Below are positions 16,534 through 52,584 of a stretch of 64,000 nucleotides of DNA, piece by piece. Position 1 is the stretch's first letter; each line of letters starts with the position of its first letter. The stretch spans positions 363,024-427,023 of the forward strand of contig JAIUOC010000003.1 of assembly GCA_020161265.1 (NCBI GenBank), written 5' to 3'. The notes beneath the pieces are model-generated. The model had not been told where the DNA came from. It did not search any database and was given only the letters and a program-made list of their open reading frames with translations. The DNA comes from Chloroflexota bacterium. GTDB taxonomy: Bacteria > Chloroflexota > Chloroflexia > Chloroflexales > Herpetosiphonaceae. The translations under genes and the position numbers were made by a program.

Positions 16534-19119
16534 ATGGTTTGTCCACGCTGTTCAACCGAATTAAAAACTGGGGCACGCTTTTGCCCCAAGTGTGGTGCTG
16601 GTCTACCCCGTTGGACTGGCCGCCTTGCCAATGGCGATGTATTGATTGATCGCTATGTGGTGGTTCGCCCGTTGGCCCGTGGTGGCATGGGCGCGGTTTA
16701 TTTGGCGACCGATCGGCGGCTTGGTGATGCTCCAGTCGCGCTCAAAGAGATGACGGGTTTGCATCAACCAGGCGATACCGATGCTTGGGAACGCGCTGTT
16801 GGCGAGTTTCGGCGCGAGGCTTCGCTCTTGGCGCGGCTAAGTCACCCCAATTTGCCGCGCGTGATCGACCAATTTCGCCATGACGAAAACGAATTTTTGG
16901 TGATGGAATATGTCGAGGGTCAAACGCTCCGCTCCGAAATGGAAGGCCGCACCGAGCCGTTGGCCTTGGAAACGGTGATCGATTGGATGCGCCAATTGAC
17001 CAACGTGCTGCAATATTTACATAATCAAAACCCACCGATTATCTATCGCGATCTCAAGCCGCCGAATATTATGCTGCGCCCCGATGGCCGAATTGCCCTG
17101 ATCGATTTTGGCATCGCTCGCTTGTTCAAACATGGTCAAGAAGGCGATACGGTGATTTATGGCACGCCTGGTTATGCGCCGCCTGAGCAATATGGCTTTG
17201 GTCAAACCGACCATCGCTCGGATATTTATAGTTTGGCGATGGTCATTCACGAATTGTTGACCCGTTTTGAGCCAGCCAAACGTGAAAGTACCCGCCCGCC
17301 GTTGGCGCATAATTTGCGTAATACTGTGCCACCTGCCTTGAGCGAGGTGCTGCACCGTGCAATGCATCCTGATCCTGCTGATCGTTATCAATCAATGCGC
17401 GATTTTCAAATGGCAGTCGATCATTCATTAAATCAAAATCAGGTTGCCGCCTTGCCTGATGCCACAGTGCTGCATCAAGCGACGATTGCCAAGCCCAAAG
17501 CTGCAAATTGGTGGTGGCTGGCGCTGGCCTTGGTTGGTATTGGCTTGATTGGCTTTTTGCTGGCCCGCACCTTTGGCGTATTTGCGCCTGAGGTTCAGCC
17601 AACCAGCGTGGCCCAAATTACGCCTAGCCTAGCTGAGCCAACTCCGATCGAAGCCACGGCTGTGCCGATCGTGATTGGGCCAGCTCCGCCGGGGATGTTG
17701 GCGATTCCTGGTGGCACATTTGTGATTGGTAGCGATGCTGGCTCACCTAACGAGCAGCCAGTTGGTCGCGGCTATCTGCCAACCTTTTATATTGATCGCA
17801 CTGAGGTGACGGTAGCGGCCTATCGCGCCTGTGTCGAGCAACAACGCTGTAGCGAGCCAGCTGATCGTAGTTCGCTGACGGTCGCTGATTATTACGATAA
17901 CGCCCAATATGCTGAATATCCGATGATTAATGTTTCGTGGCAACAAGCCTTGACCTACTGCCAAGCTCAAAATAAACGCTTGCCCAGTGAGGCCGAGTGG
18001 GAGCGGGCGGCGCGGGGCACTGAAGGCCGCATCTATCCATGGGGCGACCAGTGGGATGCCAGTTTGCTGAATGCTTGGGGCGCTGGAGTTGCTGGCGATA
18101 CCCGCGCAGTTGGCAGTTATCCTAATGGTGCTACGCCCGAAGGCGTTTTGGATTTAGCTGGCAATGTTTGGGAATGGACGAGCAGCCTTGATTTGCCCTA
18201 CCCCTACAATGCTGCTGATGGCCGTGAAGTGCCAACCCAACCTGGCTCGCGGATTGTGCGCGGCAGTTTTAGCGGCACGAATCCTGAGAATGCTCGCGCG
18301 GCGGTGCGCGAACGACGCGACCCTGAATTGCCCTTAAATATTATTGGCTTTCGCTGCGTCACCAACGATTTTTATGTGCCCGAAGGCATGGATTTTATTG
18401 CGGGCGGGCGCTGGACGATGGGCGCAACTGCCGAAGATTTGGCGCATTACAAAGAAGTCTATGGATGGCAAGGCTTGCAAAATGAAGAACCAGCAACTCC
18501 AATTTCGACCACGGCCTTTTATCTTGATCGTACTGAAGTGTCCAACCAAGCCTATGCTGAGTTTATTAATGCGACTGATCGCGCTGTCCCGACCAATTCA
18601 TTTGATCCGGTTGGGCTTTCATTGTGGTTGCCCGATCGCACAGTACCAATCTCGCTGAGCCAACATCCAGTTGTCAATGTAACCTGGGATGATGCCCGCA
18701 GCTATTGCGAATGGCGTGGCAAACGGCTACCGACCGAAGCCGAGTGGGAACGGGCGGCGCGTGGCGATCAGCGCACGATTTTCCCATGGGGCGATCAAGC
18801 TGATGCTAGTTTGCTCAACAACAAGGATTTTGGGCCAGGCCGAACTATGCCCGTTGGCACATTGCCAAACGCTGGCCCCTATGGCACACTAGATCTTGCA
18901 GGCAACGTGTGGGAATGGACACAATCGCTGTATATTCCCTATCCGTATCATCCCAATGATGGGCGCGAGTTGCCGACTGGCGCAGGTTCGCGGGTATTGC
19001 GCGGTGGTTCGTGGTTCGATGATCTGATGTCAGCGCATACCACAGGCCGCAATTCGTTCCGCCCCGACCTTGCCAATATCAATGTTGGTTTTCGGTGTGC
19101 ACAGGATGTTGCACCATAA
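16534..19119 (+). CDS. Ser/Thr protein kinase with N-terminal zinc ribbon, one TM helix and two C-terminal FGE-sulfatase (SUMF1-like) domains
   Basis: CPRC...CPKC zinc ribbon. Kinase motifs: GxGxxG-like LARGGMGAVY, VALKEM, YRDLKPPN, DFGIAR, GTPGYAPPE. TM segment WWWLALALVGIGLIGFLLA. Two FGE domains, each ending RVxRGGSW/F ... (I/N)GFRC. Confidence 0.85.
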   Translation: MVCPRCSTELKTGARFCPKCGAGLPRWTGRLANGDVLIDRYVVVRPLARGGMGAVYLATDRRLGDAPVALKEMTGLHQPGDTDAWERAVGEFRREASLLARLSHPNLPRVIDQFRHDENEFLVMEYVEGQTLRSEMEGRTEPLALETVIDWMRQLTNVLQYLHNQNPPIIYRDLKPPNIMLRPDGRIALIDFGIARLFKHGQEGDTVIYGTPGYAPPEQYGFGQTDHRSDIYSLAMVIHELLTRFEPAKRESTRPPLAHNLRNTVPPALSEVLHRAMHPDPADRYQSMRDFQMAVDHSLNQNQVAALPDATVLHQATIAKPKAANWWWLALALVGIGLIGFLLARTFGVFAPEVQPTSVAQITPSLAEPTPIEATAVPIVIGPAPPGMLAIPGGTFVIGSDAGSPNEQPVGRGYLPTFYIDRTEVTVAAYRACVEQQRCSEPADRSSLTVADYYDNAQYAEYPMINVSWQQALTYCQAQNKRLPSEAEWERAARGTEGRIYPWGDQWDASLLNAWGAGVAGDTRAVGSYPNGATPEGVLDLAGNVWEWTSSLDLPYPYNAADGREVPTQPGSRIVRGSFSGTNPENARAAVRERRDPELPLNIIGFRCVTNDFYVPEGMDFIAGGRWTMGATAEDLAHYKEVYGWQGLQNEEPATPISTTAFYLDRTEVSNQAYAEFINATDRAVPTNSFDPVGLSLWLPDRTVPISLSQHPVVNVTWDDARSYCEWRGKRLPTEAEWERAARGDQRTIFPWGDQADASLLNNKDFGPGRTMPVGTLPNAGPYGTLDLAGNVWEWTQSLYIPYPYHPNDGRELPTGAGSRVLRGGSWFDDLMSAHTTGRNSFRPDLANINVGFRCAQDVAP

Positions 19120-35075: not shown

Positions 35076-35099
35076 CCACCGTATAATGGAGAACATTGC

Positions 35100-36623
35100 A
35101 TGCAGCGCCGACGATGGATATTAATCGCAATCAGCCTGACGCTGCTTCTAGCGAGTGCTGGCTTGAGTTTAGCTCGCACAACTGGCCTGTTGGATGACCC
35201 GAATTGCACAACCAGCGATTGTACGTTTTTACCGTTGGCCTTGAAAAATTCTAGTGAAATTACGCCAATGCCAACAAATGCGGCAACCGCAACCAGTGTG
35301 ATGCTCTCGCCAACTGCAACATCGAGCACTACCCCAACCGCCGCGCCAACCGCAACCAGTACCTCAACTAATGTGCCAACTGCGACGAACACCGCAACCG
35401 ATGTGCCAACCGCGACGAACACACCAACTGCTGTACCAACCGCAACCAGTACGCCAACCGACGTGCCAACTGCGACCAATACACCAACTGATGTGCCAAC
35501 CGCGACCAACATACCAACTGATGTGCCAACCGTGACCAACACACCAACCCATACATCAACGCCAACGAGTACATCAACCCATACATCAACGCCGACCAGC
35601 ACGGCTACGGCAACCCCACGTCCACCAACCACCACCCCAACCACGATTGTGGGTACGGCGACCCCAACCACACCGCCCAACTTCACACGGATTGTTTGGT
35701 CTACGGCTGTGCCAACACCATTTAGCTATCCTTTTGCGGCGGTTGAAGCTCAAGGCGCAGTGGTTGGCGGCAAATTGTATGTCTTTGGTGGCTTCGGTCA
35801 GCCTGGTTTATCGGGCGATACACCCTCGCGCTTGTCGAACGTGTATGATCCAGTGGCCAATACCTGGACAGCGATTGCGCCCTTGGAGCGAGGTTTGACT
35901 CACGTTGGTACTGCCACCGATGGTCAAAAGATCTTCCTTGTTGGTGGCTATATTGAAGATTTTGATGGAGTTGGCCAGATTTTCGGCTCACGGGTTTCGC
36001 GCTATTACGACACCGCCACCAATACCTACACCAACTTGCCGGTGATTCCGATTCAACGGGCGGCGGGCCAGCTGTATTATCTTGATCGGAAGTTGCATTA
36101 TGTTGGTGGAACCTATTACAAACAGGTTGATGTTGGCACGCATTTTGTGCTCGATTTGAATGATTTGGCGACTGGTTGGGTGACCCAGACCAACCAACTA
36201 ACCTATGCCGAGTTGCCCAATCCACGTCAACATGCTGGTGGGGTGGTGCTTGATGGCAAACTCTACTATATTGGCGGTCAGCATGGCCACGATGGTAGTT
36301 TAACCGTCGATAACGATGTGCATCGCTATGATCCCGCTACGAATATGTGGGAACAAATGGCCGATATTCCGTTGGCCTTGAACCATATTAGCCATTCGAC
36401 CTTGGCGCTTGGCGGTAAAATTTTCGTCTTTGCTGGCCAAACCACCAACGGAACTAAACATAATACGATTTATGTGTATGATCCGGCCACGAATACTTGG
36501 GCACAAATGCCTAACAACTTGCCAGCAACCCGTTATTCAGGCATTATTGGCGAGATTAATGGCACGTTGTATTTCACGACTGGCGGCGGAACCAACAGCT
36601 ATCGTGGAATTCCCACACCATAG
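35100..36623 (+). CDS. secreted/surface protein with signal anchor, Thr/Pro-rich repeat linker and C-terminal Kelch (galactose-oxidase-like) beta-propeller
   Basis: N-terminal hydrophobic segment. ([10 protein letters not shown])n linker. Kelch signatures [50 protein letters not shown]. Confidence 0.75.
35340..35601 (+). repeat. in-frame tandem repeat: about 7 x 30 bp (encoding [10 protein letters not shown]) followed by 2 x 27 bp (HTSTPTSTS)
   Basis: Direct reading: ccaactgatgtgccaaccgcgaccaacaca units with point variants. Confidence 0.8.
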
Positions 36624-36670
36624 CATTATTTTGCAGGGCGTTGGTCGCGTTTGGCGGCCAACGCAAAACT

Positions 36671-37726
36671 ATGAGTATCACGATCTATCCAATTCCGCGT
36701 TTGCTGGCAACCAACCCATATCTTGATTTGTTGTATGCGCCATTTGCTGCATGGCCTGATGTGCAGATTGCACGCCAGCCATTTGCTCAAACCTTGCGCC
36801 ATGGCTTGTTGCATGGCGGTCAGCGGGTGCTGCATTGGCACTTTTTTGATGAACTGACCCAGCAGCCCAGCCAAGCGGCAACTGCATTGCGTAGTATGAG
36901 CTTTATTGTGCTATTGCGTTTGCTGGCTTTGCGTGGAGCAAAATTGGTTTGGACGGCTCACAACTTGGAGCCACACGAATTGCGTTACCCCCAATGGGCG
37001 CAGCGTTGTTATCAGGCTATGGCGCAGGCGGCTGAGCAAATTATTGTACATTCGCAGGCCGCCGCCCAACTGCTCGATCAACGCTATCAGGTTGCCGCTA
37101 AAACCAACGTGATTGCCCATGGCTCGTATATCGGTGTCTATGGCGAAGCTTGGGATCAAGCGGCTGCCCGTGAGCAATTGCAACTAACGCCCAAAGGCTT
37201 TGTTGCGCTCAATCTTGGCACATTGCGTCCCTACAAAGGTGTGGAATTGTTGCTTGAGGCTTGGTCAGCCGAGCTTGGCCGCTTGCTGATTGTGGGTGCG
37301 GCCAAAGATCAACGCTATGCTGAGCAATTGCAACAACAGGCAACCAATCCTAGCATCACGCTACGGCCCCAGTTTATTGCCGATGCCCTTCTGCCTGCTT
37401 GGTTTGCCGCCTCCGATGTGGTCGTATTGCCCTATCGCAAAACCTTGACCTCAGGCATGTTGCTGGCAGCGCTTTCGTATGCCACGCCAGTGGTTGCGCC
37501 TGATTTGCCGCCAGTCCGCGAATTGATTCGCGATGGCGAGAATGGCTTTTTGTTTGAGGCCAACGATGTGGCTAGTTTACGCGCCGCTTTACACCGTGCC
37601 GCCGCCCATCCCGATCGACAAGCTTTGCGCCAAAATGCGCTCCAAACAGTTCAAGCGCTTGATTGGAGCCTGATTGCCAACCAAACTGCGGCAGTTTATC
37701 GCCGTTTATTCGAGAAACCCGCATGA
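36671..37726 (+). CDS. glycosyltransferase family 1 (GT4-like)
   Basis: Start MSITIYP. C-terminal GT1 motifs (VVLPYRKTLTSGMLLAALSYATPVVAPDLPPVRELIRDGENGFLFE). Confidence 0.8.
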   Translation: MSITIYPIPRLLATNPYLDLLYAPFAAWPDVQIARQPFAQTLRHGLLHGGQRVLHWHFFDELTQQPSQAATALRSMSFIVLLRLLALRGAKLVWTAHNLEPHELRYPQWAQRCYQAMAQAAEQIIVHSQAAAQLLDQRYQVAAKTNVIAHGSYIGVYGEAWDQAAAREQLQLTPKGFVALNLGTLRPYKGVELLLEAWSAELGRLLIVGAAKDQRYAEQLQQQATNPSITLRPQFIADALLPAWFAASDVVVLPYRKTLTSGMLLAALSYATPVVAPDLPPVRELIRDGENGFLFEANDVASLRAALHRAAAHPDRQALRQNALQTVQALDWSLIANQTAAVYRRLFEKPA

Positions 37727-40509: not shown

Positions 40510-41406
40510 ATGGGTATTCGTGGCTTATTTGTGGGAATCAATAGTTATAGCGAGCGGCCACTCAAGGGTTGTGTCAACGATGTAAGCGTAGTTCGTGAGT
40601 TGTTCAAAGCCCAACACGCTGCTGCCGATGATCAACTGCGTTTGATCACCGATGCTGCGGCTACGCGCCAAGCTATTATTGATAATTTGGGCTGGCTCGC
40701 CGAACCGCTCAACGATGGGCAGCCGGAAATTCGAATTTTTCACTATGCTGGCCATGGCGTACAACAGCCTGATCAAAATGGCGATGAACCTGATGGTGCT
40801 GATGAATGCCTCGCGCCAATTGATTATCCCAGCGCTGGCTTGCTGAGCGATGACCATTTAGCCGAGCTATATCAAGGATTTTTGGGTACAACGCGGCTCA
40901 TTTTGTTGATGGATTGCTGTCATTCGGGCACGATCAGCAAAGACCCTTTTTCCGATATTCGGTATCGCACCTTAACTCCCGCCAAAGTGGTTTATGATGA
41001 AATTCGTGCCAAGAAGCAGGCCTATCAACAACACCAGGTTGATAGCGTAGCGCAACAAATTCTTGATCTGCAACAACGGAGCGCCGACCCCAGCGAAATT
41101 GCTAAGTTTGCAGGCGAGTTGGTCAGTTCGTTGCAAAAACAGAGTTTTGGCCAACGCCCACAGCACGAAAACACCATTTTGATTTCAGCCTGCAAGGCCG
41201 AGCAAGTTGCCGCCGATGCCAATTTTGGCGGAACCTACCACGGTGCCATGACCTTCTTTTTGAAAAATATTCTCAGCGAAAATCCCCAAATTAGCTATGC
41301 CAACCTTGGCGAACAGCTTCGCCGTAGCCTCTACGACAATAAGTTTCAACAAATTCCCCAACTTGAGTGCCCAAATAGTCTAATTAACCAGCCCTTCCTA
41401 CGTTAA
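40510..41406 (+). CDS. caspase-like peptidase (C14 family, metacaspase/HetF-type)
   Basis: Catalytic dyad context HYAGHG (His) and LLMDCCHSG (Cys). 298 aa, no signal peptide. Confidence 0.8.
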   Translation: MGIRGLFVGINSYSERPLKGCVNDVSVVRELFKAQHAAADDQLRLITDAAATRQAIIDNLGWLAEPLNDGQPEIRIFHYAGHGVQQPDQNGDEPDGADECLAPIDYPSAGLLSDDHLAELYQGFLGTTRLILLMDCCHSGTISKDPFSDIRYRTLTPAKVVYDEIRAKKQAYQQHQVDSVAQQILDLQQRSADPSEIAKFAGELVSSLQKQSFGQRPQHENTILISACKAEQVAADANFGGTYHGAMTFFLKNILSENPQISYANLGEQLRRSLYDNKFQQIPQLECPNSLINQPFLR

Positions 41407-41473
41407 TTAACTAAGCAGCCAATTGCTAGGCGATTGGCTGCCCTCATCGATCACGCTGCACTGAGGAGCTTGT

Positions 41474-42487
41474 ATGAGTTCAGATCATGCTCACGATTGT
41501 CCATGTGCTGATCCTATCACCCAATTACGCCAGCTCTTTGTCAACAGAACTATGGGCACGCGGATTAACGCCGGACAAGATCCGGTTCGACGGGCGGTGT
41601 TTCTTAAGGCGCATGGCGGGGCCAAAGCCACCTGGTGGGTTCGCCCTGATTTGCCAGCCGAGCTACGAGTTGGCTTGTTGGCCTACGATCAGCTGGCAGC
41701 ATGGCTGCGCTTTTCCAGCGATACCGTGCCTTTTGCCAGCGACCTTGGCACAACCTTGGGGGTAGGCATCAAGCTGTTTGGTATACACGGCCGTAAATTA
41801 TTAACTGGTGAAGAAGCTGCATTAACTCACGATTTGGTCTTGCAAAATTATCCAGTCTTTTTTGTCGATACTGCCAAGGATATGTGCGAATTTACCTACG
41901 AAGGCTTGGTGGGTGATGGCTATGATGCGTATCTCGCCAAACACCCCAAAACCCGCAAAATTCTCGATTTGATGCAGCAAAATCTGGCCAGTGTCTTCGA
42001 TGCAGTGTATTGGAGCGGCCTGCCCTATGCGTTTGGCCAAGGTCGTTACGTCAAATATCGCTTGGCGCTTGAAGCGCTCAATCCACAGCCACCCAGTAAC
42101 CCACAGCTCAACCCCAACTTTTTGCACGATGATTTGCGTAGTCGTTTGTTGGCAGGCCCGATTGATCTGCACTTTAGCATTCAACTACGCACCAATCCTA
42201 AGCTGATGCCGTTGGATGCAGCAACCGTCGAATGGTCAACCGAGCTAGCCCCGCCGCTGCATGTGGCAACCCTAACCCTGCCCCAACAAGATATTGATGC
42301 GCCTGGCCAAGCCGCCTATGTCGAAAATCTGGCCTTCAATCCTTGGCATGCACTGCCTGAACATGCTCCAGTTGGCAGCATCAGTGAAGCTCGCAAAGTA
42401 GTCTATCAAGCTTCGGCGGAGTTGCGCCGCCAACGCAATGGCATTCCGATTGTGGAGCCACGCCAACCTCGTCACGATTTAACCTAG
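41474..42487 (+). CDS. catalase-related (mini-catalase/allene-oxide-synthase-like) haem protein, putative
   Basis: Distal-His-like RRAVFLKAHGGAKATWWV. Proximal haem-ligand motif R-x3-Y-x2-S/A-x3-R (RKVVYQASAELRR). About 337 aa, the size of small catalase-related proteins. Confidence 0.45.
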   Translation: MSSDHAHDCPCADPITQLRQLFVNRTMGTRINAGQDPVRRAVFLKAHGGAKATWWVRPDLPAELRVGLLAYDQLAAWLRFSSDTVPFASDLGTTLGVGIKLFGIHGRKLLTGEEAALTHDLVLQNYPVFFVDTAKDMCEFTYEGLVGDGYDAYLAKHPKTRKILDLMQQNLASVFDAVYWSGLPYAFGQGRYVKYRLALEALNPQPPSNPQLNPNFLHDDLRSRLLAGPIDLHFSIQLRTNPKLMPLDAATVEWSTELAPPLHVATLTLPQQDIDAPGQAAYVENLAFNPWHALPEHAPVGSISEARKVVYQASAELRRQRNGIPIVEPRQPRHDLT

Positions 42488-42527
42488 CCCTCCAAAATGC
42501 TTGAATGGTTTACAAGGAGATGTGATT

Positions 42528-44465
42528 ATGGCTTGTGCTGAGATTGTCAGCGTCGCGATTTATCCTCCCGTTGGCTTTGCCCGCGTCGGAAATAGCCCAA
42601 ATGAGTTTTTTTATGGCCCCGAAGTGCTGGGTGCACCCCAAGTTGACCCCGATTTGTTTCGCGATCCGAGTGGCGCGATCAAACGCCAAGCGGCGCGGTT
42701 TCGGGTTTATGGCTTGAATGCCGCTGGTGAGGTGATTTGCGAGTTAAACCAAACCAATCCTGATGTGCAAGAAATTGTTTGGACGGCGCAGCTCGCCAAT
42801 CAAAAAGCCGCGTGGTATGAATTTATCCAAGCACTGGATATTCCGGCCTCGGCTGATGGCAAAATTGTTAGCAAGCGCCGCAATGCCGATGTAACTGAGC
42901 GCGATCAATTGACGATCGATGGTGGCACGCGCAGCATTTGTGGCTTGAATGTCAATCCTCAGGGCGAAGAGGCGATCTATGCCTTTGATCACGGCGCATT
43001 CTTTGGTAAGCAAGTTTATTTGGGCGAATTGCGCACCGATCAACAGGGCAATTTGATTGTGCTGGGCGGGCGGGGTCACTCAGCTTCGGCCCATGGCAAG
43101 CCCTTAACCACCTTTGCCGATAACGATGATTGGCATGATGATACTGCCGATGGCCCGATTGAGGCCGTGGTTAAGCTGAGCGATGGACGGGTTTTGCAGG
43201 CAACTCATGCTTGGGTGATTGTTGCGCCGCCTGATTATGCGCCAGGCACAAATTCGATTATGACAGGCTATGATTTGCTGTTTGAAGTGGCGATGCAGCT
43301 TGATTCGACGCTTGCGCCAGCCAAGCCACGTTTCAGCAGCGAAATTTATCCGTTGCTCTCACGGTTTAGCCAATTGCAATGGGTTAATGCTGGCTTTGCG
43401 CGGAGTTTTGGTTGGGGCAGCCCCAGCGATTTCAATAATCCTGAGTTGATCGCTCGTTTGGGCGATCCTAGTGCTGCCAGCGAACCGTTGCGCCAAGCGG
43501 TTTTGGCTCAAATGCGCAATCCTAGCAATCCCTATATTGATCCCGAAGGCTTGCCATTGTTTTATGGCGATGCGATTACGCTCAACACCAAAACCACCGA
43601 TCCCCAAGAGTGGCAGGCAATTTTGCCTAGCCAATATCGTTGGCTAGAGCAATGGGCCAATGGCGATTTTATTGCCGATGGCTTGCCCGTGGTCAGGCCG
43701 TGGGAGCAGCTTGATCCCGCTGAGCAGGCCTACAATCTCACGCGGGCGGCGCTTGATGCAACCTTGGGCGGGCCGTTTCACCCCGGCTGCGAATTCACTT
43801 GGCCGTTACGCCATACCTCGATGTATGTAGCACCATTTCGACTCAAACGCCGCACCAGCCCTGAGCCAGATTGGGGCGATACGCTCGATGCGGCTACTGC
43901 CTTAGCTCCCGATGGGATGTTGTATGCCAGCGCTGCTGGGGCAATTACGCGTTGGATGGCCGTGCCTTGGCAAACCGATACCTCAAGCTGTCTCTCGGCC
44001 TATATGGGCTATGCCGGAACTTATTTGCCAACTTTTTGGCCCGCTCGTGTGCCCAACGATGTGCTTAGCCAAGAGAGCTACCAGATTATTATGAACCCTG
44101 ATGCTACGCCTGAAGAGCGTGCCCAAGCCTTCGCACCGACTGCCCGCCGCAAGTGGCTGCGCGGCATGGTCTACACCGAGAGCATTCCACCAGGCCATAT
44201 TCCAACCGTGCCAGCAATTACTAAATTTACCAACGAATGGGATACCGTGGGCATTATCATCGCCCAAACTGGGCCTGAACATAGCGCTAGCTTCCCGCAA
44301 ACGCTATGGGTTGAAACAGGCCGCCACGTTGAAGCTCAGGCTCCCCAATTAACCCGTAGCCTAGCCGCCGAGCCAGAAACTGATCTGGTTGATAGCGACC
44401 TCAATTGGCCACAACAACGCCTCAAGCGAGGACGCAAAAATGCTGCCGAAGCCAATAACGATTGA
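42528..44465 (+). CDS. LodA-like amino-acid oxidase (CTQ quinoprotein family; L-lysine epsilon-oxidase / glycine oxidase GoxA relatives)
   Basis: AAGGAGA RBS. N-terminal LodA signature IYPPVGFARVGNS. Conserved Asp-x3-Cys (WQTDTSSC) with a Trp about 60 residues downstream (RRKWLRG), as for the cysteine tryptophylquinone pair. Confidence 0.65.
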   Translation: MACAEIVSVAIYPPVGFARVGNSPNEFFYGPEVLGAPQVDPDLFRDPSGAIKRQAARFRVYGLNAAGEVICELNQTNPDVQEIVWTAQLANQKAAWYEFIQALDIPASADGKIVSKRRNADVTERDQLTIDGGTRSICGLNVNPQGEEAIYAFDHGAFFGKQVYLGELRTDQQGNLIVLGGRGHSASAHGKPLTTFADNDDWHDDTADGPIEAVVKLSDGRVLQATHAWVIVAPPDYAPGTNSIMTGYDLLFEVAMQLDSTLAPAKPRFSSEIYPLLSRFSQLQWVNAGFARSFGWGSPSDFNNPELIARLGDPSAASEPLRQAVLAQMRNPSNPYIDPEGLPLFYGDAITLNTKTTDPQEWQAILPSQYRWLEQWANGDFIADGLPVVRPWEQLDPAEQAYNLTRAALDATLGGPFHPGCEFTWPLRHTSMYVAPFRLKRRTSPEPDWGDTLDAATALAPDGMLYASAAGAITRWMAVPWQTDTSSCLSAYMGYAGTYLPTFWPARVPNDVLSQESYQIIMNPDATPEERAQAFAPTARRKWLRGMVYTESIPPGHIPTVPAITKFTNEWDTVGIIIAQTGPEHSASFPQTLWVETGRHVEAQAPQLTRSLAAEPETDLVDSDLNWPQQRLKRGRKNAAEANND

Positions 44466-45510
44466 TTGTTTGATCGTTGGCGGCGGAATTGCTGGCTGCG
44501 CCTGTGCCGTGCATCTCGCACGGCATGGGTGGCAGGTGCTTGTGCTCGAACGCCCGCCTACACGGCCACAACGCTTTGGTGAAAGTTTAGCGCCTGCCGC
44601 TCGTCCGTTGGTGCACGAGCTTGGGTTAGATCTTGATCGAGAGCATTCGATTTGCCCAGGCAATCTGGCAGCTTGGGGATCAGATGCGCTCTATCATCAT
44701 GATTTTTTGGCAACGCCCTATGGTCATGGCTGGCATCTCAATCGACCTCATTTTGAGCAGCAGCTCCACCAGTGCTGCCTTGGATTAGGCGTAACATTCA
44801 GTTCAGCGTCAATCAGCTACCTCGAACGCCAGCCCGAACGCTGGATTATTGGGGTTGGAGAGCAATTATTTCAAACGCGCTGGCTGATTGATGCCACTGG
44901 CCGAGCACGTTGGCTAGCACGGCGGCTGGGAGTACAAACCCAGTTCGATGGCCCCAAACAGCTCGGTTTGGTGGCGATGCTGGAGCCGCAAGCCCAGCCA
45001 TGGCCGGATCAGCGGAGTTTGGTCGAGGCGGTAGCTGATGGTTGGTGGTATGTGGCGCGAGTGCCGCAAGCCCAAATGGCGACAATTTTTATTGGTCAAC
45101 CAACCACCAACCAACGCCAAAAGCTTGCTCAGGCCGAGGGTTGGTGGCAATCGCTCAAGCGCAGCACTTGGGCCAAACAATGGCTTGAGCAACATCAGCT
45201 TTGTGCCCAACCATATTGGGTCGATGCCAGCAGCAGTCGTTTGGATCGCTGCTATGGCAATGGTTGGCTGGCGATCGGTGACGCGGCCATGAGCTATGAT
45301 CCGCTGGCGGCGCATGGGATTACAGTTGGATTAACCAGCGCCCGTGATGCCGCCCAATGTTTAATCGCTGCCAACCAAGGCTCAGTTGCTGCGCTGTATG
45401 GCTATGGTCATCAGCTGGAATTGGCTTGGCACGCTTATCGTCAGCTTCGCCAACAGATCTATGCCCAAGAACAGCGCTGGCCTGATCGCCCATTTTGGCA
45501 ACCACGCTAG
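44440..45510 (+). CDS. LodB-like FAD-dependent flavoprotein (cofactor-maturation partner of LodA-type oxidases)
   Basis: Overlaps the 3' end of lodA-like by 26 nt. FAD fingerprint CLIVGGGIAGCACAVHLARHG...VLVLER. Halogenase/GG-reductase-like fold. 356 aa. Confidence 0.6.
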   Translation: MLPKPITIDCLIVGGGIAGCACAVHLARHGWQVLVLERPPTRPQRFGESLAPAARPLVHELGLDLDREHSICPGNLAAWGSDALYHHDFLATPYGHGWHLNRPHFEQQLHQCCLGLGVTFSSASISYLERQPERWIIGVGEQLFQTRWLIDATGRARWLARRLGVQTQFDGPKQLGLVAMLEPQAQPWPDQRSLVEAVADGWWYVARVPQAQMATIFIGQPTTNQRQKLAQAEGWWQSLKRSTWAKQWLEQHQLCAQPYWVDASSSRLDRCYGNGWLAIGDAAMSYDPLAAHGITVGLTSARDAAQCLIAANQGSVAALYGYGHQLELAWHAYRQLRQQIYAQEQRWPDRPFWQPR

Positions 45511-45712
45511 CAAAAACCCTGAATTATGCTAAGATGCAGCAATCAAATTTTTGGCTGCTGCATGGAGTCAAACTCGTCCATACACTCCACCCATCAATTG
45601 CTCCATCACCCACAGCAGCATGCTTCAATCTGCTACGTTTGCTAGAGAATCAAACGTTGGTAGCCACAATTGTTGTGTGAGTTGAATTCCATTTGGCTTG
45701 GAAGGAGCTACG

Positions 45713-47086
45713 ATGGGCCATGATCATGCGCTGGTTATCGGCGCAAGCATTAGCGGTTTAGCGACCGCGCATATCCTCAGCCACTATTTTGCTCAAGTAA
45801 CGATTATTGAACGTGATAGTTTGCCCGACTCGATTGAGGTTCGATCTGGTTTGCCGCAAGCTCGCCACCTGCATCTGTTGTTGATGCGCGGAGCGCGTGA
45901 GCTTGAAACGCTCTTTCCTGGCATTGGGCAAGAACTCGTGGCTCACGGCGCACAGTCGGTCGATTTGATGAATGATTATCGCTACTTGATGGCTGGTGGT
46001 TGGGCCAAACCGCATCAATCAGCCCATCGCACAATTTCGGCCAGCCGCCCGCTCTACGATTGGGTGCTGTTGCAGCGTTTACGCCAAAACCCCAAAATTC
46101 GGATCGAAACCCAAACCGATGTGCTTGGCTTGGTTGGGGATTTGCGCCATGTGCGGGGCATTAACACCAAGCGCCGCGATACTGGGGTTGAGCAACAATT
46201 TCTAGCCGAACTCTTGGTTGATTGTAGTGGGCGTTCATCCAAGCTTGATCAATGGCTACAAGCGCTGGGTTGCCAAGCAGTACCCGAAACCGTGATTGCC
46301 TCGAATGTTGGCTACTGCTCACGACTCTATGCCAAGCCCGAAGGCTGGAACGAATGGAAGGGCTTATTTGTGCGCCAGCGACCATTGGTTAATCCACGCG
46401 GCGCGATTTTAACCGAGATTGAAGGCAATCGCTGGATGGTGACCTGTGGTGGTTTTAATGAGGCCAAGCCACCCCTTGATGAGAGCGAATGGCTGAATTG
46501 GCTCAACCAATTGCGCTCGCCAATTTTGTATGAATTGTTGAGTAAGGCCCAGCCAATTAGCCCATTGGTTGGTTTTGGCCGTACCGAAAATCGCCAACGC
46601 CATTATGAGCAAATTAGCCTGCCTGCGGGAGTGGTGGCGTTGGGTGATGCTGTTTGTGCGTTTAATCCAATTTATGGACAAGGTATTAGCAATGCCACCT
46701 TGGGCGCGATCTTGCTGAGCCAGCATTTAAAAGAACAAGATCGGGCTTCGGCAGCCTGGGGTCAGCGCTTTCAACAAGCACTCGCTAAAAGCAATCAATT
46801 TCCTTGGAGCATTGCGGTGGGCGAAGATGCCCGCTATAACGCCAGCGTCAAGCGTTCGTTTGGCGCAACTCTGCTGCGCAACTACTTCGACCAAATTAAC
46901 CTAGCATCAAGCAATAATCCGGTTGTGCTCAACCGCTTCACGCCGATTGTGCATATGACTGGCAATCCCAGTGGCTTACTGCACCCAGCGATGATCTGGA
47001 ATGTTATTAAAGGTCGCTTGAAGCCCCAAACGACCAACCCAACGCCCTCGATCCCTACCATTCTCAGCGCTAGCCAAGGAGCGTAA
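45713..47086 (+). CDS. class A FAD-dependent monooxygenase-like flavoprotein, paralog 1 of 3
   Basis: AAGGAG RBS. GxGxxG (VIGASISGL), DG-type motif (LVDCSGRSSKL), GD motif (LGDAVCAFNPIYGQGIS). Confidence 0.75.
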   Translation: MGHDHALVIGASISGLATAHILSHYFAQVTIIERDSLPDSIEVRSGLPQARHLHLLLMRGARELETLFPGIGQELVAHGAQSVDLMNDYRYLMAGGWAKPHQSAHRTISASRPLYDWVLLQRLRQNPKIRIETQTDVLGLVGDLRHVRGINTKRRDTGVEQQFLAELLVDCSGRSSKLDQWLQALGCQAVPETVIASNVGYCSRLYAKPEGWNEWKGLFVRQRPLVNPRGAILTEIEGNRWMVTCGGFNEAKPPLDESEWLNWLNQLRSPILYELLSKAQPISPLVGFGRTENRQRHYEQISLPAGVVALGDAVCAFNPIYGQGISNATLGAILLSQHLKEQDRASAAWGQRFQQALAKSNQFPWSIAVGEDARYNASVKRSFGATLLRNYFDQINLASSNNPVVLNRFTPIVHMTGNPSGLLHPAMIWNVIKGRLKPQTTNPTPSIPTILSASQGA

Positions 47087-47088
47087 CC

Positions 47089-48450
47089 ATGCTACAAGAT
47101 CATGCAATTGTGATTGGAGCCAGTATCAGCGGCTTGATTACCGCTCATATGCTGAGCCACCATTATGGTCGAGTCAGTGTGCTCGAACGTGATAGCTTGC
47201 CCGAGGCTGGCGATTTTCGCGCGGGCGTGCCCCAAGGTCGCCATGTGCATTTGTTGCTGATTCGCGGCGCACGTGAGCTGGAAACGCTTTTTCCAGGCAT
47301 CAACCAAGAACTGCAAGCTCTTGGGGCACAAGCCGTCGATATGATCAACGATTGTCGCTATTACCTCAAAAATGGCTGGACAGTACCTCAGCCAACCGAA
47401 TTGAAAACGCTCTCGGCAACTCGCCCTTTGTTTGATTGGGCAATTCGGCGGCGCTTATTGCAAAACCCCAAGATTCAGTTTTTGGCCCAACACGATGCCC
47501 TGAATCTGATTGGCAATAGCCGTCATATTCAAGGGGTGCAGGTGCGCAATCGCCAAGATGGCAGCGAACAGAGCTTGCATGCTGATCTGGTTGTCGATGC
47601 CAGCGGGCGCAATTCCAAATTGGCGGAATGGTTGGGCGAGCTTGGTTGTGGCAAAGTTAGCGAAACTGTGCTTGATGCCAAACTTGGCTATACTTCGCGG
47701 CTCTATGCCAAGCCCGAAGGTTGGAAAGAATGGAAAGGCCTGTTTGTGATGCAACAGCCGCCGACCATTCCCAAAGGTGCGATTTTGCTCGAAGTTGAGG
47801 GCAATCGCTGGATTGTGACTGGCGGTGGGGTCAATCATGCCAAGCCACCAACCGATGAAGCTGGTTTTATGCAATGGCTGCGCGAATTGCCCTCGCCAAT
47901 TTTGGCCGATTTATTGAGTAAATCGCAGCCGCTTAGCCCAACCAGTGGCTATGGTCGTACCGAAAATCGCCAACGCCACTACGAGCGTATGCACCTGCCA
48001 GCCGGAGTAATTGCCTTGGGTGATGCCGTTTGTGCCTTTAATCCGGTGTATGGGCAAGGTATTAGCACCGCCACCTTGGGGGCAATCTTGCTTGGTACAC
48101 ATTTAAAAGAGCAAGATCGTGGCTCGGCAGCATGGGGCCAGCGGTTCCAACAAGCCTTAGCCAAGAACAATCAATTCCCTTGGGAAATGGCGAGCGGCGA
48201 GGATTCGCGTTATGATTCATCATTCAAACGCCCATTTTTCAGCAAGCTGATTGCGCCCTATTTTGATCAAATTAATCAGGCCAGTTTGAATAGCAACGTG
48301 GTGTTCACTCAATTTATTAAAACGATTCACCTGATCGACAATCCGAATGCATTGTTTCATCCACGGGTGTTTATCCCCGTGCTGCTGAGCAAAATTCGGC
48401 CTAAATATTCTGATGCAGTGCCAAACTTGCCTTTGCAGGTCAACGTATAG
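47089..48450 (+). CDS. class A FAD-dependent monooxygenase-like flavoprotein, paralog 2 of 3 (about 65% identical to paralog 1)
   Basis: Same three motifs (VIGASISGL; VVDASGRNSKL; LGDAVCAFNPVYGQGIS). Starts 2 nt after the paralog-1 stop. Confidence 0.75.
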   Translation: MLQDHAIVIGASISGLITAHMLSHHYGRVSVLERDSLPEAGDFRAGVPQGRHVHLLLIRGARELETLFPGINQELQALGAQAVDMINDCRYYLKNGWTVPQPTELKTLSATRPLFDWAIRRRLLQNPKIQFLAQHDALNLIGNSRHIQGVQVRNRQDGSEQSLHADLVVDASGRNSKLAEWLGELGCGKVSETVLDAKLGYTSRLYAKPEGWKEWKGLFVMQQPPTIPKGAILLEVEGNRWIVTGGGVNHAKPPTDEAGFMQWLRELPSPILADLLSKSQPLSPTSGYGRTENRQRHYERMHLPAGVIALGDAVCAFNPVYGQGISTATLGAILLGTHLKEQDRGSAAWGQRFQQALAKNNQFPWEMASGEDSRYDSSFKRPFFSKLIAPYFDQINQASLNSNVVFTQFIKTIHLIDNPNALFHPRVFIPVLLSKIRPKYSDAVPNLPLQVNV

Positions 48451-48524
48451 CATAGGCAACTGAATCAAGCCCTGCTATACTACTAGAATAGGCAGGAGTA
48501 CATTTCAGATTTGGGAGGTGTGCT

Positions 48525-49883
48525 ATGAGACGAGACCATGCGATTGTGATCGGGGCCAGCATCGGTGGATTATTGAGTGCCCGCGTGTTGAGTGATGTGT
48601 ATGCCAAAGTGACGATTTTGGAGCGCGATACGTTGCCCGATGGGGTGCAATTTCGGGCAGGCGTGCCGCAAGGTCGCCAATTGCACTTGCTGCTGATGCG
48701 CGGCTTGCTCGAATTAGAAAAACTGTTCCCCAAATTGCGCGAAGATATGAAGGCGCTTGGCGGCAACGAGCTGGATCTGATGAACGATTGCCGCTATTTA
48801 TTTGCGGCAGGCTGGGCCGAACCACGACCCTCGGATTATCGCAGCATCATCGCCACCCGCCCCTTGTTCGATGCAGCGATTCTTGGGCGGATTCGCCAAA
48901 TTCCCAATATTGAAATTCAAACTCGCCAAGAAGTGACGGATTTGCTCTTTCACGGGCGGCAAGTTGTCGGGGTCAAGCTGCGCAATCGTGATACTGGCGA
49001 GCAGCATGAACTTAACGCCAACTTGGTTGTCGATGCGGCTGGCCGCCCATCCAAGCTGCCCGAATGGCTAGAACAACATCAATTTGGGCGCGTCAAAGAG
49101 ACCATTTACAAATCGGATGTGGGTTATGCCACCAGAATGTACACCGCGCCAGCCGATTGGCAAGGCTGGCCAGCGATCTTTGTGATGCCGATGCCGCCGC
49201 ATATTCGCCATGGTGCAACCTTCCTTAAAGTTGAAAACGATCAATGGCTCTTGACGATTGGCGGAGTTGGCAGCCAGCGCCCACCAACCGATAGCGCTGA
49301 GTTTGAGGCTTGGCTGGCGCGGATGCGCACACCATTGATTGCTGAAATTACCCAGAAATTTACGCCTGCCAGCCAAGTGTATGGCTATGCCAAAACCGAA
49401 AATCGTTGGGTGCATTACGAACAACTACCCGTTATGCCCGCTGGCCTGATTGCTATTGCCGATAGCGTGTGTGCCTTGAATCCAATTTATGGCCAAGGCA
49501 TCACCAATACTGCCATGAGCACGCAGGTTTTGGCCAAGCATTTGCAACGCGAAGGCATTGGCAGCGCACCTTGGGCCTTGAGTTTCCAAAAAGCCTTGGC
49601 ACGCCGCAACAAAGCGGGCTGGCTCACCACCATCAGCGAAGATTCACGGCTGGCTGATACGCCAACCTATCGCCCAATCTTGCCGATTCGCGTGCTGCAA
49701 TGGTATAGCGATAAAGTGAATTTGGCGGCGGCGGGCAATCGGGCTGCTACCAACGCAATGGTTGGTGCGATTCATATGATTGGCTCAGCTGCGAGCTTAT
49801 TTACGCCCAAAGTATTGCTTGCCGCCTCGCGCTTTTTCCGTTCACAACCGCCAAGCAGTGTGCCAGCAGCACCCAATAAATAA
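48525..49883 (+). CDS. class A FAD-dependent monooxygenase-like flavoprotein, paralog 3 of 3 (more divergent)
   Basis: GGGAGG RBS. VIGASIGGL; VVDAAGRPSKL; IADSVCALNPIYGQGIT. Confidence 0.75.
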   Translation: MRRDHAIVIGASIGGLLSARVLSDVYAKVTILERDTLPDGVQFRAGVPQGRQLHLLLMRGLLELEKLFPKLREDMKALGGNELDLMNDCRYLFAAGWAEPRPSDYRSIIATRPLFDAAILGRIRQIPNIEIQTRQEVTDLLFHGRQVVGVKLRNRDTGEQHELNANLVVDAAGRPSKLPEWLEQHQFGRVKETIYKSDVGYATRMYTAPADWQGWPAIFVMPMPPHIRHGATFLKVENDQWLLTIGGVGSQRPPTDSAEFEAWLARMRTPLIAEITQKFTPASQVYGYAKTENRWVHYEQLPVMPAGLIAIADSVCALNPIYGQGITNTAMSTQVLAKHLQREGIGSAPWALSFQKALARRNKAGWLTTISEDSRLADTPTYRPILPIRVLQWYSDKVNLAAAGNRAATNAMVGAIHMIGSAASLFTPKVLLAASRFFRSQPPSSVPAAPNK

Positions 49884-49984: not shown

Positions 49985-50554
49985 ATGCAACCTATGAGTC
50001 ATCATCTCAATGGTAAACGGGTGGCGATTATCGCAACTCATGGCTTTGAACAGAGCGAGCTTGAAGAACCCAAAGCGGCCTTAGAGCAAGCCGGAGCCAA
50101 AACCCATGTTATTTCGCTCAAGGCTGGCACGATTCGTGGCTGGAAAGAGCAAGATTGGGGCAGTGAAGTTGCTGTCGATTATACGCTTGAGCAAGTTAAT
50201 CCTGCTGATTATGATGGGTTGTTGTTGCCTGGCGGCGTGATGAACCCCGATAAATTGCGGCGCGAAACCAGCGTTTTGAATTTTGTACGAGCCATGGCCG
50301 AAGCTGGCAAGCCAATTGCGGCAATTTGCCATGGCCCATGGACATTGATTGATGCTGGAATTGCCAAAGGCCGCATGCTCACATCGTACCCAACCTTGCA
50401 AAACGACCTGAAAAATGCGGGAGCCGAGTGGGTTGATCGCGAGGTCGTGGTCGATAATGGCCTGGTGACCAGCCGCAATCCCCAAGATATTCCCGCCTTC
50501 AATCGCAAATTTATTGAAGAATTAGGCGAAGGTTTACATAAACAAGTTGGCTAA
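49985..50554 (+). CDS. DJ-1/PfpI family protein (intracellular protease/deglycase type)
   Basis: Nucleophile elbow AAICHGP. LLPGG. 189 aa. Start possibly at 49994. Confidence 0.85.
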   Translation: MQPMSHHLNGKRVAIIATHGFEQSELEEPKAALEQAGAKTHVISLKAGTIRGWKEQDWGSEVAVDYTLEQVNPADYDGLLLPGGVMNPDKLRRETSVLNFVRAMAEAGKPIAAICHGPWTLIDAGIAKGRMLTSYPTLQNDLKNAGAEWVDREVVVDNGLVTSRNPQDIPAFNRKFIEELGEGLHKQVG

Positions 50555-52214: not shown

Positions 52215-52284
52215 TCCATCCTCCAAATAAAACATCTGTGCTAATACTATAACCAAGCTTAAGCCAAATGTAAAGCAGGAACCA

Positions 52285-52470
52285 ACTTATGAGGGATGAA
52301 ATTTGGTATTTAACGTCGCGAAAATATGGATGAACATAATTCGTGAAATTCGTGGCTAATTGGAATATCAAAAGCCAAAAGCTTATAGTCATTCTTCGTG
52401 TCCTTCGTGGATCGAAAACGCCCAGTCCCCGACCTCCAATAACCGATCCCCAGTTAAACAACAACACGCC
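52285..52470. repeat. mosaic intergenic repeat R6
   Basis: tatgagggatgaaa; aaaagccaaaagcttatagtcattcttcgtgtccttcgtggatcg; cccagtccccgacctccaataaccgatcccc. Confidence 0.55.
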
Positions 52471-52493
52471 ATGAAACTTCATAGCGTGTGATT

Positions 52494-52584
52494 TGGCGGG
52501 TGGAGAGGGATTCGAACCCTCGAGAGCTTTGACACCCTACGGCATTTCCAGTGCCGCGCACTCGACCAACTATGCGACCCACCC
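52494..52584 (-). tRNA. tRNA-Ser (anticodon GGA), class II with an 18-nt variable arm, CCA encoded
   Basis: Reverse complement GGGTGGGTCGCATAGTTGGTCGAGTGCGCGGCACTGGAAATGCCG...GAGGGTTCGAATCCCTCTCCACCCGCCA. Acceptor, D, anticodon (CGGCA/CTGGAAA/TGCCG) and T arms all fold. T-loop TTCGAAT. Confidence 0.85.

Follow-up and report, generated by a model that had tools for sequence, protein, structure and literature searches.

What do three consecutive copies of a flavin monooxygenase gene contribute to a bacterium of the Herpetosiphonaceae, and do they act together with the lodA- and lodB-like genes that immediately precede them? This question is raised by a locus within 64,000 nucleotides of DNA from a member of the Chloroflexota (contig JAIUOC010000003.1, positions 363,024–427,023), which stretch we refer to throughout as the window and whose DNA is about 94–95% identical to that of Herpetosiphon aurantiacus DSM 785. 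We designate the three genes P1, P2, and P3. The answer that we favor—and to which we assign a probability of roughly 60%—is that they are old local duplicates with the relationship (P3,(P1,P2)), kept by purifying selection and independent of lodAB, whose products would carry out a flavin-adenine dinucleotide (FAD)-dependent epoxidation of a hydrophobic olefin in the manner of MonCI, an epoxidase of polyether biosynthesis.

Three Consecutive Genes on the Forward Strand

P1 (45713–47086; 457 aa), P2 (47089–48450; 453 aa), and P3 (48525–49883; 452 aa) are all read from the forward strand. P1 was delimited by its open reading frame (ORF), ribosome-binding site (RBS), and Pfam match as a gene for a MonCI/Lsd18-like class A flavin monooxygenase; P2, the nearest of the trio to the family consensus, by its ORF and phmmer matches; and P3, the divergent paralog, by its ORF and an AlphaFold2 model. 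These same-strand ORFs give mutual full-length BLAST matches far beyond chance, so that the three consecutive paralogs described in an initial annotation made from the sequence alone are real. The lengths reported there hold for P2 and P3; the 462 aa given for P1 correspond to an upstream TTG at 45698, while the ATG at 45713 that the annotation itself had used yields 457 aa, a length matched by the P1 orthologs and by the family member P0001 (96% identical). The stop codon of P1 and the start codon of P2 are separated by 2 nt (TAA-CC-ATG), as had been noted, and P3 does have an RBS of its own (GGGAGG) after a 74-nt spacer (48451–48524), but so have P1 (GGAAGGAG) and P2 (AAGGAG). That spacer also contains a promoter-like TAGGCA-17-TATACT (48453–48481; a consensus match only), and upstream of P1 the weak promoter-like hexamers TAGCAA (45508–45513) and TAAGAT (45530–45535) were recognized by eye, the promoter scan not having flagged them. 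The region upstream of P1, including its leader (45511–45712, forward strand), is homologous to the stretch lying directly 3' of a caspase-like gene in those genomes that lack lodAB.

Global alignment of the proteins gave identities of 59.6% for P1–P2, 41.6% for P1–P3, and 43.6% for P2–P3—lower than the approximately 65% first estimated for P1–P2 and the 45–50% estimated for P3 with the other two—with the DNA identity among the three ranging from 58 to 66%. The three flavoprotein motifs attributed to the trio are present, though as variants. The Rossmann fingerprint reads G-A-S-I-(S/G)-G in all three copies and is thus GxSxxG rather than a literal GxGxxG, a variant also found in MonCI (GASMAG) and in the rest of the family (consensus GGSMAG), with Lsd18 having GGGMAG; the N-terminal stretch as a whole is VIGASI(S/G)GL...ERD, in which the acidic residue ending the second strand is present. 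The FAD-contact motifs are D(C/A)(S/A)GR at residues ~170–174 and (G/A)D(A/S)VCA(F/L)NP at ~311–319; P1 and P2 carry D(C/A)SGRxSKL and GDAVCAFNP, in place of which P3 carries DAAGRPSKL and ADSVCALNPIYGQGI (the ADSVCALNP region).

Relationship to the Epoxidases MonCI and Lsd18

The initial annotation had placed the three products among the class A flavin monooxygenases, whose fold is that of p-hydroxybenzoate hydroxylase (PHBH), and the domain, sequence, and structural matches all bear this assignment out. In Pfam only FAD_binding_3-type models matched above the cutoff (for P1, 42.9 bits against a cutoff of 22), each protein being a single chain of ~450 aa that has no distinct domain for binding NAD(P)H. 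A phmmer search of the PDB matched MonCI and Lsd18/LasC over residues 5–376 at E-values of 9e-68 to 2e-66, the next match being a halogenase at 6e-07; the identities to MonCI are 34% (P1), 36% (P2), and 33% (P3). The structure was modelled for P3 alone, the most divergent copy, with which P1 and P2 align end to end. That AlphaFold2 model, with a mean predicted local-distance difference (pLDDT) of 93.3 and a predicted template-modelling score (pTM) of 0.92, superposes in its full length on Lsd18 and MonCI at template-modelling (TM) scores of 0.88–0.90, the C-terminal helices included. In a Foldseek search with it all the top matches were class A enzymes of the PHBH-like two-domain fold, with a large gap below MonCI and Lsd18 to squalene epoxidase (TM 0.67–0.71), followed by Bmp2 and kynurenine monooxygenase. 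The scores with the NCBIfam models for UbiH, LodB, GoxB, QhpG, geranylgeranyl reductase, and others were all far under their cutoffs.

Two signature regions, RKGxPQxRHxHxLWSxGA and AFNPxxGHGMSxxA, have been stated to be exclusive to the polyether enzymes (PMC10560226). The trio has variants of both, R(S/A)G(L/V)PQ(A/G)R(H/Q)xHLLL(M/I)RG and A(F/L)NP(I/V)YGQGI(S/T), which differ in the LWS and GHGM parts. In Lsd18, His71 stacks on the flavin and Arg51 contacts the adenine (PMC12144862); by motif alignment these residues would correspond to the invariant His54 and to Arg34 of the ERD motif, both of which all three copies have. From the FAD_binding_3 matches, the similarity to MonCI and Lsd18, the model, and the signature variants, we therefore consider that "class A" is correct and "MonCI/Lsd18-like" more precise; that specific affinity to the polyether epoxidases was missed in the initial annotation, as was the variation in copy number of P1 described below.

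Proposed Activity and Its Genomic Context

MonCI epoxidizes farnesyl 4-hydroxybenzoate and has been crystallized with farnesyl acetate (PMC10560226 and structure search), while its C-terminal Arg412 and Arg454 have been modelled as residues for docking of the carrier protein (PMC10560226). By analogy, the likeliest activity of the trio would be an epoxidation of a long hydrophobic olefin dependent on FAD and on NAD(P)H, the reduced nicotinamide-adenine dinucleotide (phosphate). Each enzyme would bind FAD, which NAD(P)H would reduce; the reduced flavin would give rise to a C4a-hydroperoxyflavin; and one oxygen atom would then be delivered to a C=C bond of the substrate, a long hydrophobic molecule accommodated in a large pocket. 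The substrate would be free and not bound to a carrier protein, most plausibly isoprenoid- or polyene-like, and the three copies would probably differ in the substrate or in the position that is oxidized. The divergence between the copies peaks at residues ~76–105, at ~136–165, and in the C-terminal helices, a pattern that is compatible with—though no test of—a diversified substrate or regiochemistry. The substrate-range expansion originally put forward would be plausible.

The family to which the trio belongs is large. A profile search yielded 4,329 clusters (50% identity) at E ≤ 1e-30, with at least 594 loci among species-representative genomes, in Cyanobacteria, Chloroflexota, Acidobacteriota, Planctomycetota, Actinomycetota, Myxococcota, and other phyla. 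We called and clustered the ORFs of 80 distant loci, neighbors being counted over 84 loci. The recurrent neighbors are generic: histidine kinases, ABC ATPases, zinc alcohol dehydrogenases, and alpha/beta-hydrolases. Among 38 close same-strand neighbors at the distant loci, which might be operon partners, were two terpene synthases, one UbiA prenyltransferase, and three alpha/beta-hydrolases, which is a thin hint at isoprenoid olefins and the handling of epoxides. In Winslowiella arboricola (locus L055, 10001–12303) the family gene overlaps a family-2 terpene synthase gene by 15 nt on the same strand, and in Fischerella sp. PCC 9431 (locus L033, 8874–11359) it adjoins one, also on the same strand; these two members would be the most tractable for finding a substrate. 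Loci beyond Herpetosiphon almost always carry the gene as a single copy. An ORF-based count had suggested that this was so without exception; tblastn overturned that count by revealing two copies at three of the 80 loci (L052, 407–3184; L060, 8530–11299; and L029, 1443–7905), independent duplications, tandem or nearby, that belong to an Actinomycetota metagenome-assembled genome (MAG), Archangium minus, and a Gemmataceae MAG.

Several points weigh against the epoxidase interpretation. Epoxidation and hydroxylation cannot be told apart from the sequence, and our search of the literature found no characterized non-polyether homolog of MonCI. The signature regions deviate from those of the polyether enzymes, with LL[MI] for LWS and GQGI for GHGM; in P3, moreover, an Ala stands for the Gly of the GD motif, and the binding of FAD or the chemistry may therefore be altered. 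The distant loci have no conserved genomic partner, the commonest neighbor cluster, itself generic, occurring in eight of the 84; and the hint at isoprenoids comes from three of the 38 close neighbors. The tree on which the duplication history is based was built by neighbor-joining only, with 83% support for the inclusion of P3.

A broader proposal, which we put forward tentatively as possible and no further, is that the trio belongs to a large non-polyether branch of MonCI/Lsd18 enzymes that would act on free, endogenous lipophilic olefins (isoprenoid or polyene lipids, for example) and not on polyketides bound to carrier proteins; in Herpetosiphon the copies might perform different or successive epoxidations of a single class of lipid, P3 being the specialized one with its altered FAD-contact motif. 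If that proposal were true, a chemistry would be provided for about 4,300 clusters (50% identity, E ≤ 1e-30) in Cyanobacteria, Chloroflexota, Acidobacteriota, Actinomycetota, and Myxococcota, including, by automated name only, Rv3254 of Mycobacterium tuberculosis. The P3 ortholog of H. gulosus has been named automatically after Rv3254, whose membership in the family is unverified beyond that name and which is mentioned in the literature only as uncharacterized. The tandem array is, for its part, an unremarkable expansion, specific to its lineage, within a family of orphan enzymes, and the wider family is of more interest: although it is huge and lacks a polyketide context, it has close variants of signatures that were reported as exclusive to polyether enzymes. 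The same genes are already present in the public genome of H. aurantiacus DSM 785, and two are automatically named "Epoxidase LasC" in H. gulosus; the literature that we searched held nothing on Haur_0826–0831 (locus tags that we guessed) or on LodA in Herpetosiphon.

We regard it as unlikely that the trio consists instead of ordinary class A hydroxylases acting on aromatic or small substrates in an inducible catabolism or detoxification, the copies serving to widen the range. Such a role would agree with most class A enzymes being aromatic hydroxylases, with the conserved palindrome near the putative promoter (see below), as occurs in catabolic or detoxification operons under repressor control, with the conserved DJ-1/PfpI neighbor, with the lack of a biosynthetic cluster nearby, and with a family devoid of fixed partner genes. 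Yet every characterized enzyme that resembles the trio this closely is an olefin epoxidase whose hydrophobic pocket is very large, and the aromatic hydroxylases stand much further away (E > 1e-3, TM about 0.6).

The Divergent Third Copy

P3 has RQ for RH, DAAGR for DASGR, AD for GD, and ALNP for AFNP, and these changes are fixed in the four P3 orthologs examined (4/4). The Ala in the GD motif replaces a Gly found in every other member compared (83 of 83), and from the highly conserved positions of the family P3 deviates at 13 of 81, compared with 6 of 81 for P2. The ratios of nonsynonymous to synonymous substitution (dN/dS) are ~0.10 for P1, 0.08–0.11 for P2, and 0.03–0.06 for P3; all three copies are maintained by purifying selection, and P3 is paradoxical in being the most deviant from the family and yet the most constrained. 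P2 and P3, furthermore, are retained together in every Herpetosiphon genome examined. This combination of deviation, fixation, constraint, and joint retention could be accounted for if P3 were not a stand-alone oxygenase but an altered or noncatalytic partner, in a complex with P2 or P1, or if its flavin chemistry were different. We nevertheless judge such a role improbable, as the fold of P3 is intact and was modelled at high confidence; P3 still has the ERD motif and the NPxYGQG helix, together with the flavin-stacking His and the Asp of the GD motif; and the replacement of Gly by Ala is conservative.

Relationship with the lodAB Cassette

The initial annotation had suggested from their position directly after lodAB that the three enzymes might act on the same metabolite. 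The genes in question form part of a variable catalase–lodA–lodB cassette of 4.1 kb on the forward strand (approximately 41412–45515, from junction alignments), which lies outside the paralog array and comprises a gene for a 337-aa protein (41474–42487; "catalase family protein" in NCBI, with no Pfam match), a LodA/GoxA-like gene (42501–44465), and a LodB/GoxB-like gene (44389–45510), the last two recognized by family scan. The junction alignments place the cassette between the stop codon of the caspase-like gene and an otherwise conserved region upstream of P1. At six Herpetosiphon loci—H. llansteffanensis, the MAG locus L002, NSE202, H. geysericola, H. giganteus, and the contig L088—the cassette is absent and the paralogs lie directly 3' of the caspase-like gene. 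At the 80 distant loci, no homolog of LodA, LodB, the catalase-family protein, the caspase, or DJ-1 is encoded within 10 kb of the family gene. The cassette is a lineage-specific insertion or deletion that is found only in the H. aurantiacus-like clade, and, since it is lacking in the relatives and at the distant loci, a joint action of the trio with lodAB is unsupported. Annotation by neighborhood would otherwise propagate that link.

It is accordingly very improbable that the trio works with LodA and LodB, whether by acting on what the LodA-like oxidase produces or by maturing the cysteine tryptophylquinone cofactor of that enzyme. Such a partnership might be read from the adjacency on the same strand in the window, in H. 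aurantiacus DSM 785, and in contig L085, from weak matches of the paralogs with the models of QhpG and LodB (E 1e-7 to 1e-9), and from the similar palindromes upstream of the cassette and of P1, which could mean a common regulator. Against this stand not only the six loci without lodAB and the 0 of 80 distant loci with LodA or LodB nearby but also the scores of the paralogs on the LodB, GoxB, and QhpG models, which are 16–37 bits (29–37 with the LodB and QhpG models) against cutoffs of 240–400, and on which the LodB-like gene of the cassette reaches 160–240; the leader upstream of P1, moreover, is the same as in the genomes lacking lodAB.

The palindrome of the P1 leader has 14-nt arms and is located at its start (45534–45563; ATGCAGCAATCAAA..TTTGGCTGCTGCAT), and a similar one lies upstream of the cassette (41415–41441; GCAGCCAATTGC...GCGATTGGCTGC); the pattern occurs three times against an expectation of 0.41. 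The first ~35 nt of the leader, like the palindrome itself, are invariant across four species and are retained in the two-copy genomes, in which P1 has been lost. The two palindromes could be operators or the scar of a cassette insertion. An Rfam search of the window returned a tRNA only, with no match in the P1 leader.

With respect to the cassette itself, the 337-aa protein weakly matches PDB 3e4w (E 3e-5), which we take to be a small catalase-related heme protein, and a peroxide-handling protein beside an H2O2-producing quinoprotein oxidase would make a sensible three-gene cassette. The LodA-like protein scores higher with the GoxA model (437 bits) than with that of LodA (201 bits), under both cutoffs; and its LodB-like partner attains 240 bits with GoxB and 200 bits with LodB, where the cutoffs are 400. 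The pair looks like a further type of cysteine-tryptophylquinone oxidase.

Duplication History and Loss of P1

A neighbor-joining tree of 82 family members, rooted on MonCI and bootstrapped, gave a support of 100 to each ortholog group and to P1+P2, 83 to P1+P2+P3, and 99 to the trio together with a metagenomic sister pair (P0010, P0012). In 17 alignment columns all the P1, P2, and P3 proteins have a residue that occurs in fewer than 10% of 81 other members, and most of these rare residues are absent from the sister pair; three residues, in addition, are deleted in the trio alone. The best nonorthologous matches of P3 are the P2 orthologs, at 424 bits compared with 391 or less for others. The topology (P3,(P1,P2)) that is thus supported would imply two successive local duplications, in agreement with the stepwise origin initially proposed; and because the tree, the rare residues and deletions, and the matches of P3 concur, the three copies are each other's closest homologs. 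That P1, P2, and P3 were instead acquired independently by horizontal transfer is effectively refuted by this monophyly, by the P2 orthologs being the best matches of P3, by the 17 residues and common deletions, and by the same tandem order in all the genomes examined, even though the 42% identity of P1 with P3 is not above the 40–44% of P1 with many cyanobacterial and Chloroflexota homologs.

The duplications are old, because P1 and P2 are 60% identical while the orthologs from different Herpetosiphon species are 84–94% identical (P1 orthologs, 84–85%), with the paralogs as a whole at 42–60%; to judge from these identities, both duplications precede the divergence of the sampled species. No tract with raised synonymous identity between the paralogs was found, and recent gene conversion has thus not occurred.

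Three arrangements of the locus were found. In the first, the order is caspase, the 337-aa gene, LodA, LodB, P1, P2, P3, and DJ-1/PfpI, as in the window, in H. aurantiacus DSM 785, and in contig L085, which starts inside lodA; consecutive accession numbers alone suggest the same order in H. gulosus. The proteins of the window itself match exactly those of a "Chloroflexi bacterium" MAG (MCA0352125–130). In the second, P1–P2–P3 lie directly 3' of the caspase-like gene without lodAB (H. llansteffanensis and the MAG L002). In the third, only P2–P3 are present, again without lodAB (NSE202, H. geysericola, H. giganteus, and contig L088). P1 has been deleted at these last four loci, where the P1 leader breaks off after its first ~86 nt and continues into the final ~55 nt of the P1 coding sequence; from this junction of the leader with the 3' end of P1, the loss of P1 is therefore a derived deletion. 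Unequal crossing-over was considered as the cause of the loss and ruled out, since a junction at which mid-leader sequence meets the final ~55 nt of P1 is that of a simple deletion. In the reading that we favor, two local duplications took place before the sampled Herpetosiphon species split, with a later deletion of P1 in one lineage. Two-copy and three-copy genomes thus occur naturally within Herpetosiphon, some having lodAB and others lacking it, and their lipid or metabolite profiles could be compared in order to find the substrate.

Neighboring Genes and the Remainder of the Window

The conserved neighbors of the array are, upstream, the caspase-like (Peptidase_C14) gene (40510–41406, forward strand; Pfam) and, downstream, the DJ-1/PfpI gene (49985–50554, forward strand; Pfam, 185 bits), which latter is found 3' of P3 at all the Herpetosiphon loci (L001, L002, L003, L085–L088, and L090). 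The array lies between these two genes, has its own upstream region with the conserved palindrome, and would be independent of the lodAB cassette.

Relative to H. aurantiacus DSM 785, a segment of the window at 35076–37681, which takes in a kelch-repeat gene and the greater part of the glycosyltransferase gene beside it, is inverted, and comparison of the gene order with L001, L002, and L003 suggests an inversion of the whole kelch–glycosyltransferase block. About 930 bp with two small ORFs, located in DSM 785 between the PRK-family and caspase genes, are missing from the window, as are about 240 bp from the interval that separates the catalase-family gene from lodA. Synteny with DSM 785 stops at ~52281, just before a tRNA gene (52497–52584, minus strand), beyond which point LuxE-like, major-facilitator-superfamily transporter, and GGDEF genes replace those of DSM 785; the region ~52281–52584 may be a hotspot of integration or rearrangement. 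Elsewhere in the window (16534–19119, forward strand), an 861-aa fusion protein combines a zinc ribbon, a Ser/Thr protein kinase, and a C-terminal FGE-sulfatase domain like that of the formylglycine-generating enzyme.

Comparison with Known Systems

The LodB/GoxB/QhpG maturases belong to the same broad flavoprotein superfamily as the trio, and one such gene stands immediately upstream of P1 in the window; the trio differs, however, in its scores of 16–37 bits against cutoffs of 240–400 and in that the pairing with lodA is not conserved. UbiH, UbiF, and Coq6 likewise have the class A fold and act on a prenylated, lipophilic substrate, but TIGR01988 gives the trio only 16–25 bits (cutoff 224.65) and UbiH a TM of 0.62; the JGI label "polyprenyl-methoxyphenol hydroxylase-like" carried by many family members is a generic transfer.

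Squalene monooxygenase (human SQLE; PDB 6C6N, 6C6P, and 6C6R) is a class A epoxidase of a linear isoprenoid and constitutes the next-best structural class (TM 0.67–0.71) and a weak sequence match (E 3e-4), though with only 18% identity it is a separate family. That enzyme is membrane-anchored and, in eukaryotes, is reduced by a separate reductase.

The polyether epoxidases, finally, are encoded in modular polyketide-synthase clusters, epoxidize trisubstituted alkenes, act on polyene substrates bound to carrier proteins, and are accompanied by epoxide hydrolases of the MonB/Lsd19 type. Neither 20 large window ORFs nor the annotated flanks (10 kb) of eight related loci yielded any polyketide-synthase, nonribosomal-peptide-synthetase, or terpene genes, not all of the small ORFs that the window has outside those flanks having been scanned; the defining genomic context of the polyether epoxidases is therefore absent. 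Unlike MonCI and Lsd18, the trio is not accompanied by a nearby polyketide synthase, carrier protein, or epoxide hydrolase of that type; is chromosomal, among housekeeping and regulatory genes; consists of three diverged copies and not one; and bears LL[MI]RG for LWSxG and GQGI[ST] for GHGMS. We accordingly file the genes as MonCI/Lsd18-like in their presumed working and not as polyether epoxidases. It is nonetheless with MonCI (monensin) and Lsd18/LasC (lasalocid; PDB 8T3P, 9UDB, 8UP4, and 8WVB) that the trio has most in common: the single-component class A fold, the RxGxPQxRHxH loop, and the AFNPxYGxG helix, at E-values of about 1e-67 and identities of 33–36%.

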